A stretch of DNA of 32,000 bases. Source: Candidatus Harpocratesius repetitus (GTDB taxonomy: Archaea > Asgardarchaeota > Lokiarchaeia > Sigyniarchaeales > Promethearchaeaceae). A program made the position numbers and the translations under genes. Positions 1-24,313 of the stretch are shown piece by piece (the first letter of the stretch is position 1; every line of letters begins with the position of its first letter). The notes beneath the pieces were generated by a model. It ran no database searches. It saw only the letters and a list, made by a program, of their open reading frames with translations, and was not told the origin of the DNA. The stretch covers positions 3,210,001 through 3,242,000 of the forward strand of contig JAIZWK010000001.1 of NCBI GenBank assembly GCA_021498095.1, in the 5' to 3' direction.

Positions 1-264
1 AATGGTAAATCATTAGCAGAATATGCAAGACAAACCTTACTCACGGATATTCGATCAAAGCGGTGTGATTTGGCATTTAAATTGGTTGAAGAAGGTAAAT
101 GTGGGATGAAACGAGCATGGAAAATTTCAGGACTTTCTTTTCGTGAATTTTTGATAGAGTGGAATAATCGTAAAGCTTCTGAAAAAATTAGCGATAATTT
201 ACAAGAAGAACATTGGAACATTGTTCAAAACTTAGATATAAATAAATACTTGCGAACCAAGTGA
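1..264 (+). CDS. UPF0175-family putative antitoxin, 5'-truncated by the window edge
   Basis: Frame 1 is open from base 1 (NGKSLAEYARQTLLTDIRSKRCDLAFKL...), so the track start at 70 is internal. The pattern KRAWKISGLSFREFL resembles UPF0175. Its stop overlaps the start of a PIN gene (GTGA). Confidence 0.6.
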   Translation, partial: NGKSLAEYARQTLLTDIRSKRCDLAFKLVEEGKCGMKRAWKISGLSFREFLIEWNNRKASEKISDNLQEEHWNIVQNLDINKYLRTK

Positions 265-764
265 AACCGATGCAAATCACTTTTGATACTTGCTTTCTTT
301 TACGAATTCAAGAAATTGATCAAATTTTGAACTTAAAATTGAAAGAATTATTCGCAGATTTCATTTGGGTTTATTCTGATGAATTATTATTAGAATACAA
401 AAGACAACAGATTGAAAAATTTCTACCTAAAGATGCAATCTATATTCCACTAACTAAGAAAGAATGGAACTATTATCAAAGTAAATACCCACTTGAATCT
501 TTTGATTTAGCAGACCAAGAAATCGTAATTCTCGGATTGCGGGATGGAATAACCACAGTAACTGGGGATCGTGATCTATTTCATTTAATTCATGCTCTAA
601 AATTACCTGTTATTCAAATATGGGCATTTCTCTTAAAATTAGTTGATAATAAAATGTTATCAAAGAATAATATGGCAAAAATCATTAATTATTGGGTAAA
701 AAGCCACCAATATTCTAAAGGTACGATCAAATTGATGAAAAACATACTTCAAAAAATTTCATAA
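261..764 (+). CDS. PIN-domain ribonuclease, DUF3368/VapC-like toxin
   Basis: N-terminal beta strand plus acidic motif (ITFDTCFL), DLADQEIVILG and VTGDRDL PIN motifs; coupled to the upstream UPF0175-like gene. Alternative ATG at 270. Confidence 0.75.
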   Translation: MKPMQITFDTCFLLRIQEIDQILNLKLKELFADFIWVYSDELLLEYKRQQIEKFLPKDAIYIPLTKKEWNYYQSKYPLESFDLADQEIVILGLRDGITTVTGDRDLFHLIHALKLPVIQIWAFLLKLVDNKMLSKNNMAKIINYWVKSHQYSKGTIKLMKNILQKIS

Positions 765-882
765 AGGAAATTTTCTTCTTGAGTGAGCTAAACGATGTAA
801 AAAAACGATTTAAGTTCAAATCTTGGATACGAGAACCAACCTCTGAAATATTTCTATTGCAAAATTTATTTAATTGCTTACT

Positions 883-931
883 GATTTTTTCTTTGGATTT
901 CAAAGTAAAATCAATATTTAAATATATAAAT
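883..931 (+). promoter_or_regulatory. Inverted repeat (883-912) upstream of an archaeal TATA box (918-931) for the wHTH-antitoxin-MazF operon
   Basis: GATTTTTTCTTTG-gattt-CAAAGTAAAATC, followed by TTTAAATATATAAA about 20-30 nt before the ATG at 949. Confidence 0.4.
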
Positions 932-948
932 ATAGATTAAAATATAAT

Positions 949-1284
949 ATGGAAAAGAAATTGAAATCTTTGATAGATTCATATTATTCTATAAATCCAA
1001 AAATTGTTACTCCTATTCGCCTTTTAATTCTAAATTTACTTAAATTTCATAAGGATGGGTTACAATTTAGAGAATTTAAAGAGGCGATCCAAATATCTGA
1101 TGGAAATCTTTATTCAAATCTTGAAATATTGAAGGGTTTATCACTAATTAATTCTGAAAAGGTAGATATTGATAATAAATCAATTGAAATATATTCATTG
1201 ACTTCAGAAGGTCTTATTGAATTAAAAAAAACCAATGAATGGTTAAATAACTTACAAGATTTTGGTGATCAAATTGAAAGCTGA
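949..1284 (+). CDS. Winged-helix (ArsR/HTH_34-like) transcriptional regulator
   Basis: PIRLLILNLL...LQFREFKEAIQISDGNLYSNLEIL...YSLTSEG is a typical archaeal wHTH pattern. Confidence 0.85.
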   Translation: MEKKLKSLIDSYYSINPKIVTPIRLLILNLLKFHKDGLQFREFKEAIQISDGNLYSNLEILKGLSLINSEKVDIDNKSIEIYSLTSEGLIELKKTNEWLNNLQDFGDQIES

Positions 1285-1828
1285 TTATATTAAAATTCTA
1301 AAAGCGATGAAACAATTAGAAATTCCGATAGAAAGACATGAATTAAGAAAAACAAATAGAATCTTTATCCAAAAATTCACATATATTTTAAAGAAACTTG
1401 GATTTGAGTTATCCAGTTATAATGATTACAATTTTTATTTAAATGGAGTATATAGCCCTCATTTAACTCAAGATTATTATCAAATTCCAATTACTTCAGT
1501 TAATGAATCATCAATTTATCTCAGTCAGAGAGAATTAGACATTATAGAAAAATATAGAAACAACATTTTGGAACATCCCTACTTTAAAACTCACAAAATA
1601 GAATTTCATGAAGCCTTAACCACAATTCAATATTTATATGAGAAATATCACGAGTTATCTGAAAAAGAACTATTAATTACTGCTAAAAATTTAAAGAATC
1701 ATTTATCACGGAAAATCTTAGTAATATCTTTGAATGTAATTAAGAAATTGAAATTTCAACAAGATATGGTCACTCCTGATCTGAAGGAAGAATTTGCCCT
1801 TTGGGATTCATTAAACGATGGTGATTGA
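1262..1828 (+). CDS. Panacea (SocA/DUF4065)/YwgA-like putative antitoxin
   Basis: RIFIQKFTYILKKLG...YNFYLNGVYSPHL resembles the LQKxxY...WxxGPYS signature. It overlaps the wHTH gene, and its stop (1826-1828) abuts the MazF ATG. Confidence 0.6.
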   Translation: MVIKLKADYIKILKAMKQLEIPIERHELRKTNRIFIQKFTYILKKLGFELSSYNDYNFYLNGVYSPHLTQDYYQIPITSVNESSIYLSQRELDIIEKYRNNILEHPYFKTHKIEFHEALTTIQYLYEKYHELSEKELLITAKNLKNHLSRKILVISLNVIKKLKFQQDMVTPDLKEEFALWDSLNDGD

Positions 1829-2179
1829 ATGGTAAATTTATTTAAAAAAGAGATATGGAAGATAAATCTTCAGATGGGTTCTCAATCTATAATTGGTCAT
1901 GAGCAAGGTGCTACAAGACCTTGTGTAATAATGAAAGTATTACCTGCAGTTCAATTAGCAACAGTAATTCCATTAACTCGTACTTTAAGTATATTAAGAT
2001 TTCCATATACCTTAGAAATTCAACCATCAACACAAAATGGATTGTCATCCACCAGTATTGCTATGATTTTTCAAATAAGAAGTGTAAATTTTCACCGTTT
2101 TCGTTCAAAGTATGGTATTCTTGAAAATGATGAATTTACGGATATTCAGAACTTAATTTCAGATTTCATTCTAAATTGA
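1829..2179 (+). CDS. mazF: MazF/PemK-family endoribonuclease toxin
   Basis: GHEQGATRPCVIM, VIPLT and QIRSV motifs; 116 aa. Confidence 0.9.
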   Translation: MVNLFKKEIWKINLQMGSQSIIGHEQGATRPCVIMKVLPAVQLATVIPLTRTLSILRFPYTLEIQPSTQNGLSSTSIAMIFQIRSVNFHRFRSKYGILENDEFTDIQNLISDFILN

Positions 2180-2248: not shown

Positions 2249-3658
2249 ATGGAATCACCTAAAATAAAAGTAATCTTTCTAGGTAGACCCGGAGTTGGGA
2301 AAACTACATTACGTAAAATCTTCTTTGACCAGCAAAATCCACTTAAATTACTAAAGCAAACCTTTGAACCGACTCTTGGTGCAGAAACACAAGTGTATAA
2401 TTTTGGAATGGAAATTGCAGTTCATGATTTGGCTGGACAAGAATTAAAAAGATGGTTAACAACTGATGATTATATTTTAGAAGATGTTGATGTTGTCATT
2501 TTAGTGCTGGCTGCAACAGACGAATGGGAAGAAAATATGGAACTATTTAATAAGGTAAAAGAGATTCTTCAATTTAAACATATTTCAACCACGATTGTTG
2601 TCTTTTTCCATAAAATCGATCTTTTAACAGGCCACCAATTAACTGAACTTCAAAAAAATTTGGTTGAACTTCGCAAAACTGCTAAGTTTAATATAGATTT
2701 TTTTACCACAAGTATTCAGCAAAAATATATTTATGATACATTCTATGCTTTTATTCGAGCATTAAAAGCTTCTCTATATAAAATAAGGAATTTGGATTAT
2801 TACGACTTCTTCATAAAAGTTGAATTGATACGATATTTCATTACTCATGATCAAGCAGATTACAAAGAATTAGAGGAGCGACTGCGTATCAAACCGTTGG
2901 AAATCTTGGCTTTTATCAATATATTATATAAAGATGGTCTTTTAAAACAAAATCGAAAATTAAAGACAATAACTGTTACAGAAAAAGGATTGGAAATACT
3001 GGAACAAATTGATAAAGGATTTCTTCCAAATGTGAAAGAAGTTATATTAGCAGAAAGGAATTATATAAAAGGGGTAATATTAGCTGAAAAAAGTGGAATA
3101 CCTTTTTTTATATATGAATATGCTCCAGGGTATTTTAAATCTTTAATTACAGATGAACGAAGTGCATCTGAGCCTGGTATTATTTCTATGTTTTTTGCTC
3201 AAATTCTGCAATTTGGTCAAACTATGGATTACAAAGGATTAAACTCCTTTTATTTAAGTGGACATAATCTACGAATCGTTTCGCGATCCTATCGAAACTT
3301 AATGGGAATTTTCTTAATAGACAGAATTGAAATGGATCAAGGTATTTGGAAGTATTTTCATGATTTTATGCAGAATTTAAATAAAGTTTATGGAGAAAAA
3401 TTGCAAAAATTCATCGATCAACAACAATTAATTACAGATTCAGAACTTGAAAATCAATTAAAACAAGACATTCAATATTTAGATATGGTATTAAAATCCC
3501 ATCATCAAAATAAAACTCATTTTTCAAAGAAAAAATTACTCGAAATGTATATAAACTTAATGCAGGAAGAAAAAGATAGTGTAACATTATCAGAATTACA
3601 ATCTATTCTGTTCCAATATTTAATAATGGAAAGCCCAGAATCATTACGTGAAATTTGA
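2249..3658 (+). CDS. Rag/Gtr-like small GTPase fused to a winged helix and a roadblock/longin-like domain
   Basis: G1 GRPGVGKTT, G2 PTLG, G3 DLAGQ, G4 HKID, G5 TSI. Central wHTH-like segment ending TVTEKGLEIL. C-terminal IKGVILAEKSGIP alpha/beta domain. Confidence 0.8.
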   Translation: MESPKIKVIFLGRPGVGKTTLRKIFFDQQNPLKLLKQTFEPTLGAETQVYNFGMEIAVHDLAGQELKRWLTTDDYILEDVDVVILVLAATDEWEENMELFNKVKEILQFKHISTTIVVFFHKIDLLTGHQLTELQKNLVELRKTAKFNIDFFTTSIQQKYIYDTFYAFIRALKASLYKIRNLDYYDFFIKVELIRYFITHDQADYKELEERLRIKPLEILAFINILYKDGLLKQNRKLKTITVTEKGLEILEQIDKGFLPNVKEVILAERNYIKGVILAEKSGIPFFIYEYAPGYFKSLITDERSASEPGIISMFFAQILQFGQTMDYKGLNSFYLSGHNLRIVSRSYRNLMGIFLIDRIEMDQGIWKYFHDFMQNLNKVYGEKLQKFIDQQQLITDSELENQLKQDIQYLDMVLKSHHQNKTHFSKKKLLEMYINLMQEEKDSVTLSELQSILFQYLIMESPESLREI

Positions 3659-3677: not shown

Positions 3678-5942
3678 TTATATTTCATAGTTTTCATGCA
3701 AATACCCTTCTAAATGCTGAATTTTGTTTGTAATAATGTAGTATTCACGCAACAAATCTTGATACGACTTAACAAATTCTGGATTGCTGATTACACCACG
3801 ATCATATTGATATTCCAACTTTTGAAGAGTATTTTGAAAAGCATACTGATCACTTCGTAAACGTTCCAATTCTGCTCGAATATTCATTTCTTCAGATGAA
3901 AAAGGATCACTATTCATTGATTGATCAAAACTCTGGAACGAAGATGCTTGGAATCCAGATGTACCAAATGGAGCAGATGAATTTTTGCGAAAAGGTGAAT
4001 TTTGAGAAAATTGTGATCGTTGAGAAAATGGACCTGGTGAAGTAAATGGAGGACTTTTGAAATTACTCGAATTATCAGAATTATTCAAATTGCTATAATT
4101 GTTGGAATTCTTGGAATTGCTAAAATTGTTGAAATTGCTGAAATTGTTGAAATTGTTGAAATTGTGAGAATTCTTAGAATGATTGAAATTGCCGAAATTA
4201 GCGGATTTACTAAATTTACCAAATTTGTCTGAAGAACCAAAATATGTATTTCCATAATTATTAGCTCTTGGATCTGGTTGTGATTGACCTGCTCTAAATC
4301 CTTTTTGAGAGGAAGGATCAGAATAAAATGATGTGTTATTTTGATTAAATTGAGAATAGTTAGAGCCATTTGAATAATAATTGTTTCGCGATGAATAAGA
4401 GTTAGTTTGTCCAGAATATCCATTCTGCGAAAAAGTATTAGATGCTCTTCTTGGATTAGCTCTATTCTCGCGGTAGAAACCTCTTCTTGGTCCCCATTCT
4501 CTATTCATTTGAGATTGAGTAAAACCTGGATTGTGAAAATTACTGTTATTGTTGTTATTATTTTGAAATTTTGATGTATAAAGATTATAGAAGTTGTTAT
4601 TCCCATATTGATTATTGTAATGATTGGCGCGAAACATTGGAGAATTGAAGAAATCTGTGTTTGCTTGACTGTCATATCGAACTTGACCTCGATTTTGATA
4701 AATTCCATGATAACCCACTAAATTATAAATTGCATTTTCCAATTCTTCACTAAATAGTTTAGTTGTTAGTCGATATTTTATTAGTTGTTTAAAGTGAGTT
4801 TCATTAATTATGTTTTTTACTTCAAATTCTTGAGCGCGTTCAATCCAATCAACCATGATTTCCCTTTTATTTTTTGAAATAGAGAAATCATACATAGAAT
4901 TAAGGAATTGAAGAGAAACTTTCTTTTTCAACCTACCTTTTACTTCTGCAGCCTGTAAATCACCCAATTGGACAGAAAATAATAAAACTGTGCGTTTTTT
5001 GAAAACCCCTTGTTCGTGATAAAAATAGATCCGCTTGCTGGTTATCAAAATAGTACCATTTTTATTTGAATATCCTTGTTTGTCATCCACACCTGAAGAT
5101 AGTTTGCAGTTTAAGCCATAGACAATTTTTTCATCATTATCTAAATGCAGTTTGGGAAGAAATTTATTAAATAAGGACTGCATCCTTTCCATGAATCCAA
5201 TTTTGTCTTCTAAAGGTTCTAATCGAGTGAATAAGGGTTCAACTTCCGTTTTTGCCAATTTTTCAACTTTAAGGCGTTCTCTTTCAAAATGATTTAATAT
5301 TTCTGAAATATATGTAAGATTTGATGGATGGGTTATTTGAATCTCGTTAATATAATGAATATTCCGTTGAATTTCTTGAAAAAAACGGTTTGCTTGATCA
5401 TATACTCTATTTTTTCCATTATCAAATAGCTTAAATAACAGAAGAGAATCAGATTCCAAAGTAGGATAATGATAACATTGGGGATATTCTTGGCGAAGTT
5501 CAAAGATTTTATTCCGGAAAGTCTGAAGTTTATCTAAAATAGATTCAAATGGAGTTAAAAATTGGCGGGTATTATTTATTATCTGCTTATAGGTATCAGT
5601 AAGAGCTCTTTGCTTATCTACTATCCGAACAACTTGAGTACTTTCACAACTTGGACATGTAGGCAAAACTTTATTAGCCATTCTCACTTCATGCCCTCCA
5701 CAATCATCACAATAAGGACGATCGTATTTATCGAATGAAATATTTTTACTCCCACAGGATAAACAAATATACTGCTCTTCTGTCCGCAAATCAACACAAT
5801 CTTCACAAAAAACCTCATGACAGCTTTCGCAAATATATTGAAGATTAGGGTTTTCATTGCAAATTGGACATACTTCATTCGGATAAATGGGCATATGATT
5901 TGACAACCTATTCTCTAGCAGATCTATAATAAAAACACTCAT
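3678..5942 (-). CDS. Multidomain ESCRT-I-like protein: Zn fingers, coiled coil, PH/GRAM-like domain, Asn-rich low-complexity region, C-terminal Vps23/TSG101 steadiness box
   Basis: Six CxxC pairs at the N-terminus; GTILITSKRIYF PH/GRAM-like strand pattern; about 270 aa N/S/F/Q/G/Y-rich region; C-terminal AFQNTLQKLEYQYDRGVISNPEFVKSYQDLLREYY. Confidence 0.7.
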   Translation of the reverse strand: MSVFIIDLLENRLSNHMPIYPNEVCPICNENPNLQYICESCHEVFCEDCVDLRTEEQYICLSCGSKNISFDKYDRPYCDDCGGHEVRMANKVLPTCPSCESTQVVRIVDKQRALTDTYKQIINNTRQFLTPFESILDKLQTFRNKIFELRQEYPQCYHYPTLESDSLLLFKLFDNGKNRVYDQANRFFQEIQRNIHYINEIQITHPSNLTYISEILNHFERERLKVEKLAKTEVEPLFTRLEPLEDKIGFMERMQSLFNKFLPKLHLDNDEKIVYGLNCKLSSGVDDKQGYSNKNGTILITSKRIYFYHEQGVFKKRTVLLFSVQLGDLQAAEVKGRLKKKVSLQFLNSMYDFSISKNKREIMVDWIERAQEFEVKNIINETHFKQLIKYRLTTKLFSEELENAIYNLVGYHGIYQNRGQVRYDSQANTDFFNSPMFRANHYNNQYGNNNFYNLYTSKFQNNNNNNSNFHNPGFTQSQMNREWGPRRGFYRENRANPRRASNTFSQNGYSGQTNSYSSRNNYYSNGSNYSQFNQNNTSFYSDPSSQKGFRAGQSQPDPRANNYGNTYFGSSDKFGKFSKSANFGNFNHSKNSHNFNNFNNFSNFNNFSNSKNSNNYSNLNNSDNSSNFKSPPFTSPGPFSQRSQFSQNSPFRKNSSAPFGTSGFQASSFQSFDQSMNSDPFSSEEMNIRAELERLRSDQYAFQNTLQKLEYQYDRGVISNPEFVKSYQDLLREYYIITNKIQHLEGYLHENYEI
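4060..4203 (-). repeat. Degenerate 9-bp coding tandem repeat, 16 units
   Basis: Plus-strand units such as aaattgttg, aaattgctg and gaattcttg stay in phase and encode 16 x-N-(F/S/Y/L)-type tripeptides (ANF GNF NHS KNS HNF NNF NNF SNF ...). Confidence 0.9.
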
Positions 5943-23392: not shown

Positions 23393-24313
23393 TTAAAAGA
23401 ACATTAGTATTTTTTCGATATGATCAAGTAAAGATTTTACACTATCCTTCAAAGCCAAAACATTATAGACTTTTTCAGGTTTATAACCAACAAGAAGGTA
23501 AAAATTTTGATCTTCTTCTCCAACAATACGGTGAGCTAATAATTCAACACCTTCTGATTCGATGGTGAATTCTCCTGCATACAATTTCAATTTTTTTGGT
23601 TCAAAAGCTGCAAAAATTTCTTTGGCAGCTAATTTAAGAGCAGTTTGATCAACATTTTCAGGAAAATAACTTCCCAATTCAACCAGATCTTCAGAATAAA
23701 GTAAAATAAACTCGATTTGATCTTCAAAATTGTTATTTTTAACAAATTCGCTTAAAATGACTTCTGTATTGTTTGTTAAGATATTATTTCCTAAAACTGC
23801 ATTTGACATTGCGTGAATAACAGAAATAGGATTAAATATAGAAGTTTTAATTACTTCTGTTTTTAGTGGATGCGCCATTGTTTTAAGTTTTTCTCCAAGA
23901 GTCTTTACATATTCTACAGTTTCAGTCTCTTTCTCTAAACCAGGATCAAATTTATGAAGTAGGATAAAAAGAATAATATTTGGAGAGTATTCTAACAGAG
24001 CAGTTCGAACCATTTGAAAATAATTTAACGTATCAGAAATTGAGTTTTGATCTTGAATATCCACAACAAAATAAACCTGTTCTAAATCAGAAAAATAAAC
24101 ATCTGCACGATTCATATATTTTTTTCGAAATCGATCTTGACCTCCAAAATCCCATACGATCAAGTCTTTTCCAAAAAAGGTCATTTTACTCCTTTCAATA
24201 CCTTTAGTGGGTTTAAGTTTTGCGAGAGATTTAAATTCTCGTTGAAATGTACGAATAATACTTGTTTTACCTGAATTTTGGATTCCTAAAATGGGTATTT
24301 TTTCTTCTGACAT
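23393..24313 (-). CDS. Rag/Gtr-like small GTPase with a C-terminal roadblock-like domain
   Basis: G1 GIQNSGKTS, PTKG, WDFGGQ, HKFD, TSIF; C-terminal alpha/beta domain of about 120 aa. Confidence 0.85.
   Translation of the reverse strand: MSEEKIPILGIQNSGKTSIIRTFQREFKSLAKLKPTKGIERSKMTFFGKDLIVWDFGGQDRFRKKYMNRADVYFSDLEQVYFVVDIQDQNSISDTLNYFQMVRTALLEYSPNIILFILLHKFDPGLEKETETVEYVKTLGEKLKTMAHPLKTEVIKTSIFNPISVIHAMSNAVLGNNILTNNTEVILSEFVKNNNFEDQIEFILLYSEDLVELGSYFPENVDQTALKLAAKEIFAAFEPKKLKLYAGEFTIESEGVELLAHRIVGEEDQNFYLLVGYKPEKVYNVLALKDSVKSLLDHIEKILMFF

Follow-up and report, generated by a model that had tools for sequence, protein, structure and literature searches.

The gene under study occupies positions 2249-3658 (plus strand) of the window, by which we mean the whole stretch of 32,000 nucleotides from Candidatus Harpocratesius repetitus (Lokiarchaeia) that was analysed, and is a single open reading frame encoding a protein of 469 residues. 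A sequence search found a protein 91% identical to the product, named from Candidatus Harpocratesius, and its full-length relatives came mostly from Promethearchaeota/Lokiarchaeia. On the basis of two AlphaFold2 models (mean pLDDT, 78 and 86), the chain is divided into four parts: a G domain (residues 5-176; positions 2261-2776), a winged-helix (wH) domain (residues 183-256; 2795-3016), an α/β domain (residues 272-421; 3062-3511), and a C-terminal helical hairpin (residues 427-468; 3527-3652) that was absent from the sequence-only reading of this DNA. The relative placement of the domains is uncertain in the full model (pTM, 0.54). The arrangement G domain–wH–longin–helical tail corresponds to the 'GXLX' GTPases of strain MK-D1, three of which (WP_162306755, WP_147663498, and WP_162306644) are given as GTPase-X-longin-X in the supplement of Tran et al. 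2024 (PMC10933270); X carries no functional assignment in the available portion of that source, whose supplement uses neither 'winged' nor 'HTH'. WP_162306755 is the orthologue of the 469-residue protein, with 47% identity over the full length.

Downstream, and convergent with the gene as had been noted from the sequence, lies a minus-strand, ESCRT-I-like gene (3678-5942) for a 754-residue protein with zinc ribbon, PH, low-complexity, and steadiness-box-type regions; its Pfam matches (PH and zinc ribbon) fit the Znr_CC_PH_SB family described previously (PMC10936438). Upstream, a 6-kb block (window 1-2179; genome 3206195-3212179), absent from a close relative, separates the gene from an Snf7 gene, which lies 78-230 bp upstream in congeneric relatives and 6.3 kb away here after the insertion. 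The block carries a 1106-residue gene, a PadR-like wH gene (949-1284), a 188-residue gene, a PemK/MazF-like toxin gene (1829-2179), and two short genes that by eye resemble an antitoxin/PIN pair and have no Pfam match. A second Rag-like GTPase of 306 residues is encoded at 23393-24313 on the minus strand (Gtr1_RagA, E 8e-23); it belongs to a different clade and has no wH domain.

The G domain is of the Rag type (Pfam Gtr1_RagA, E 2.7e-15). The nearest solved structures are RagA and Gtr1 (Z-score, about 23; Rab/Arf reach about 19), and Pfam, the PDB sequence search, and structure alignment all place RagA/Gtr1 closest. The complete G1–G5 set with HKxD and TSI that had been read from the sequence is present: G1 GRPGVGKT (2282-2305), G2 Thr42 (2372), G3 DLAGQE (2426-2443), G4 HKID (2609-2620), and G5 TSI (2708-2716), together with Gln64 of switch II. 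The key residues of these motifs are conserved at 91-100% among 137 full-length relatives, and with its motifs intact the protein is predicted to be a GTP/GDP switch. Similarity to the RagA sequence stops at residue 180. Whole-model Foldseek matches to Roco/LRRK proteins (TM, 0.24-0.30; root-mean-squared deviation above 20) were accounted for by the G domain, and a Roc-COR reading was dropped; no COR domain was among the matches listed for the C-terminal model, and neither ESCRT-II, NPRL2, nor COR was among those listed in the structure searches.

The segment after the G domain, in which a winged helix-turn-helix (HTH) had been suspected at about 2815-3010, models as three helices, a β-hairpin, and a fourth helix with pLDDT above 90, showing the three-helix bundle and β-hairpin wing that are the hallmark of the fold. 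PadR/MarR structures match it at Z-scores of 10-11, the long C-terminal helix included. The family profile of the domain gave 136 matches among PDB sequences at E≤0.1, and the 60 listed are nearly all winged-helix proteins, both DNA-binding and non-DNA-binding; the list is headed by CheF, cullin-2, and eS10, whose winged helices are of the non-DNA-binding kind. Weak Pfam matches to HTH_45, HTH_34, TrmB, and MarR are scattered over the family. An ESM Atlas feature search with the domain returned no usable match. In a 743-residue membrane protein (L099), the wH suspected ahead of the longin reached a probability of 5% and could not be confirmed.

The α/β domain aligned with Sec22b and the TRAPP longins over 125-130 residues (Z-score, 11.5-12.1; for Sec22b, Z-score 12.1 and root-mean-squared deviation 3.1 over 126 aligned residues), and roadblocks, scoring within 1 Z of the longins, aligned over about 100 residues without the first helix. 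The element order is therefore that of a longin: of the 'roadblock/longin-like' domain that had been placed at about 3060-3480, the longin part stands and a Rag-type roadblock does not. The domain is homologous to many Asgard longins, its profile finding about 20 further longin-like proteins in the same genome, and it belongs to the common Asgard longin family. This assignment comes from the model and the profile matches to Asgard longins, as Pfam and PDB sequence searches did not recognise the domain; an ESM Atlas feature search with the C-terminal half gave only leads under 0.9. Longin and roadblock domains dimerise through α1 and β3 and make platforms for small GTPases (PMC3747258). The corresponding helix α1 (residues 309-326; 3173-3226) is the most conserved element measured, at 84-85% identity within orthologue groups, which would fit such a dimer or platform role. 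Families of stand-alone longins (about 190 residues) and longin-plus-tail proteins (about 255 residues) close to the C-terminal half (L153-L170) are scattered outside the gene cluster described below.

The sequence-only reading had taken the protein for a Rag GTPase with a wH inserted before its roadblock. Since similarity to RagA ends at residue 180, the C-terminal domain has the longin order, and its profile showed no similarity to the roadblock profile of the partner GTPase of the gene cluster (the latter profile being shallow), the models and profiles instead indicate that a G-wH unit is joined to an Asgard longin. The profile of that partner Rag-like GTPase matches RagA on through the roadblock. 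The protein shares with Rag/Gtr (RagA-D, Gtr1/Gtr2; PF04670) and the Asgard G-roadblock protein LokiRagO (PDB ID: 8yl2) the closest G domain, the HKxD and TSI motifs, and a C-terminal domain of longin/roadblock fold with a conserved dimer helix; it differs from Rag/Gtr, which are obligate heterodimers through their C-terminal domains, in the wH after the G domain, the longin order, the extra helical tail, and the lack of a detectable sequence link between its C-terminal domain and the Rag roadblock. It is predicted to work like a Rag-type switch, and its modelled C-terminal domain would place it outside the Rag family. NPRL2/NPRL3 of GATOR1 (PMC3747258) likewise combine a longin and winged helices in one chain in a Rag-related setting, but the 469-residue protein has the reverse order with the wH ahead of the longin, a single wH, and a GTPase in cis.

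In a survey of Asgard genomes for the family, scoring three candidates per genome, strong profile matches were found in 58 of 154 genomes of one Lokiarchaeial order and in 0 of 246 others, and a second search agreed. A few bins labelled, as deposited, Bathy-, Odin-, or Hodarchaeota or Patescibacteria also carry the family. All four parts were detected by profile search in 124 of 252 proteins examined, and subsets exist as separate proteins: G domain plus wH, wH plus longin and tail without a G domain, longin alone, and G domain plus tail. G-wH proteins of 290, 470, and 500 residues form one clade (support, 100/98) in a G-domain tree that is unrooted and lacks eukaryotic rows. This genome holds two paralogues and MK-D1 three. 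In P0195, P0201, P0202, and P0231, the G domain is joined directly to the helical tail. GTPase-less wH-longin-tail proteins of 345-380 residues occur in two genera (L179:2408-3490; L180-L185); their genes adjoin one for an AIR-carboxylase-like protein and frequently also a GH20 hydrolase gene. The congeneric orthologue P0009 (L173:8001-9425; the same gene in L050) has a long branch and degenerate motifs at G2, G3, and G5, and its identity is 45%, compared with 93% for the adjoining Snf7; judged from its sequence, it is likely a pseudoGTPase.

A conserved gene cluster houses most of the relatives. It includes 290-residue G-wH GTPases, a folliculin-like longin, histidine kinases of the PAS/GAF type, a stand-alone receiver, and, directly upstream of the family gene, a longin-G-roadblock GTPase; Lokiarchaeial examples (L049:1-15000; L059:6686-20493, from MK-D1; L055; L057) also contain other longin proteins and a roadblock. 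Of the 47 family genes flanked by 6 kb or more, 39 lie no further than 5 kb from a two-component gene, compared with 4 of 40 background anchors taken from five related genomes and 7% in this genome. A related longin-G(-roadblock) or G-roadblock GTPase lies within 5 kb of 34 of the 47 and directly adjacent to 28, and the ends of adjacent family and partner GTPase genes often overlap or nearly touch. The cluster receiver is DivK-like (E 2.7e-26), well conserved, and intact in its phosphorylation motifs; it is found within 2.5 kb of 30 of the 47 genes and co-oriented directly upstream in four. The gene for the 469-residue protein itself no longer lies in the cluster: the nearest two-component gene is 60 kb away, and no DivK-like receiver was found in this genome, where the best candidate reached 45 bits, while 34 of 35 receivers from the cluster scored 118-208. 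The argument from the cluster therefore holds for the family and not for this copy. The clade nearest the protein is likewise an orphan, with different neighbours in each genus. The 504-residue paralogue in this genome lies 4 kb from a 428-residue longin-G-roadblock GTPase (L131:4793-6076 and L131:10050-11561), and a second, unlinked longin-G-roadblock protein of 447 residues (L132:3446-4786) is a candidate partner of the 469-residue protein. Beside the MK-D1 orthologue, a 228-residue multi-pass membrane protein without a Pfam match, possibly a sensor, is encoded co-oriented upstream (L051:9167-9853), and a gene of the same size occupies the same place in a close relative (L178:5574-6260).

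The fold of the wH raises the possibility of a GTP-gated transcription regulator, in which the longin dimer would set two wH domains on DNA in the manner of a MarR/PadR dimer and the nucleotide state would set their spacing. The top structural matches being DNA-binding PadR/MarR proteins with the same long C-terminal helix, the weak Pfam matches to HTH families, the basic wing of the 469-residue protein, and cluster receivers without an output domain are all consistent with this. The same cluster also has a fusion of an ArsR/HTH_20 domain (E 1e-12) ahead of a Rag/Arf-like GTPase (L055:1364-2197; L062:5746-6579; L175:3740-4585), whose canonical HTH is well conserved in three close relatives, so that HTH-GTPase regulators are plausible there. 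On the other hand, the wH is the least conserved domain. Its mean pairwise identity across the family is 20%, compared with 40% for the G domain, and within orthologue groups 39%, compared with 55-59% for the G domain. Even orthologues vary most in the recognition helix and the wing: in the third, recognition-position helix (2894-2932), conserved basic or Ser/Thr residues are absent and the exposed positions are variable (19% identical in the clade of the 469-residue protein and 36% in the other orthologue group), and the wing hairpin (2942-2977), basic here, is acidic in the orthologues P0003, P0005, and P0008 and 19-23% identical within orthologue groups. Neither a Ser/Thr nor a wing Asp-x-Arg pattern was seen in the alignment of wH domains, and at family level neither the recognition helix nor the wing shows the conserved basic or Ser/Thr-rich character of PadR/MarR proteins. 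From helix 2 to the wing, the mean net charge is 0.0 for 89 family members, which are related and hence non-independent, versus +3.3 for 21 hand-picked transcription-factor-type wH domains of the same genome; charge is a weak test, since the wH of the 469-residue protein is itself at +3, as in the controls, and one PadR-like control is at -4. In two divergent proteins (P0166 and P0177), helices 2 and 3 are exactly deleted with the rest kept. A search ahead of eight orthologous genes turned up no conserved motif or palindrome beyond chance, itself a weak test, and a promoter/terminator scan stayed at the chance level. In comparison with PadR/MarR transcription factors, the family wH thus has the same modelled fold and apparently lacks the conserved DNA-contact positions, besides being neutral in mean charge, deletable, and situated between a GTPase and a longin. 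On balance, these data make specific DNA binding the less probable role of this domain, and we regard the GTP-gated regulator as unlikely; the ArsR/HTH_20-GTPase fusion seems the better candidate for a GTP-gated transcription factor. Somewhat less probable still is the wider form of the idea, a small-GTPase transcription factor whose Rag-like nucleotide state sets a wH pair on DNA as the output of the cluster of PAS histidine kinase, DivK-like receiver, Rag, and folliculin-like and NPRL2-like proteins. If true, it would be a TOR-less forerunner of nutrient signalling.

Alternatively, the wH might dock the phosphorylated stand-alone receiver, much as the C-terminal domain of CheF, an archaeal adaptor, binds CheY-P (PMC9126983), and two-component phosphorylation would then directly control a Rag-like GTPase. 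Residues 281-334 of CheF, a wH-like module, give the wH profile its best PDB match (E 2.1e-5), although the margin is small and does not separate CheF from other winged helices, and the frequent proximity of receiver and family genes agrees with the idea. The similarity is however generic, the annotated loci have no chemotaxis genes, the wH surface is poorly conserved while the receiver is well conserved, and both paralogues of this genome have kept the wH even though the cluster receiver is missing. Such docking is accordingly quite doubtful.

Binding of RNA or DNA without sequence specificity, similar to eS10, eS25, or Sso10a, which would tether the switch to ribosomes or chromatin, appears improbable: eS10, eS25, Sso10a, and AspA are among the profile matches, and conserved lysines border helix 2, as well as the end of helix 3, in the larger of the orthologue groups, but the neutral mean charge, the tolerated HTH deletions, and a conserved cluster without ribosomal or chromatin genes argue against it.

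ESCRT-II subunits carry a tandem pair of winged helices. The matches listed in Pfam, PDB-profile, and structure searches of the wH domain included no ESCRT-II (Vps22/25/36) entry. The proposal that the wH is an ESCRT-II-type scaffold linking the GTPase to ESCRT-I and ESCRT-III is the most remote of those considered, for although longin proteins have been proposed as links between ESCRT and small GTPases (PMC10936438) and the gene lies within the genus between a co-oriented Snf7 gene and a Znr_CC_PH_SB-type gene, these two genes are absent from every locus fetched outside the genus, including those of the orthologues P0003, P0004, P0005, P0007, and P0008, so that the linkage is confined to genus-level synteny; moreover, the downstream gene is convergent and part of an L35Ae-PAC2 run, and there is one wH instead of two.

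We favour, with a probability of about one half (0.52), a longin-dimerised GTP switch of a Lokiarchaeia-specific Rag-like clade that serves as a cytoplasmic signalling scaffold, with the wH and the tail as protein-interaction arms. In favour are the strong conservation of longin α1 beside a variable wH, the neutral mean charge, the HTH deletions, the occurrence of the domain subsets as separate proteins, the linkage of the family to two-component and partner GTPase genes, and the non-DNA-binding winged helices at the head of the profile matches; against it stand the DNA-binding PadR/MarR structural matches, the +3 charge of this protein's own wH, the position of this copy away from the cluster, and the uncertain domain placement in the full model. 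In this scheme, the longins would pair through α1 and strand β3, as a homodimer or with another longin or roadblock protein, giving a Rag-like dimer or a GTPase platform. Folliculin/NPRL2-like longin proteins would probably control nucleotide exchange in the G domain, and this exchange would move the wH and the tail or alter how accessible they are. The wH would have retained its fold and not a DNA-reading surface, acting as a protein-docking or spacer arm. The adjoining PAS/GAF histidine kinases and DivK-like receiver probably supply the input in most relatives, and two-component phosphorylation may be the ancestral input.

The GTPase-X-longin-X architecture of the MK-D1 orthologue and its two paralogues was already given in the consulted portion of Tran et al. 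2024. The present analysis adds to this by identifying X, by giving evidence that speaks against DNA reading, by describing natural variants with deletions, and by quantifying how the family is linked to the two-component cluster; the literature searched, mainly non-subscription papers, mentions neither X as a wH, nor those variants, nor the cluster, and a search for 'LokiRag' found no paper. For the single gene the gain is modest, in that the X domain of an architecture already in print receives a name and DNA binding becomes less likely, and the whole conserved cluster is probably more interesting. In Asgard archaea, Rag GTPases and longin regulators occur without a TOR kinase, and growth control has been proposed to be still centred on two-component systems (bioRxiv 2020.10.19.343400). 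The conserved cluster of this family joins Rag/longin genes with two-component genes, and the cultured MK-D1 has both a cluster copy and an orphan orthologue, so that the output of a pre-eukaryotic Rag pathway could be tested on a few purified proteins.
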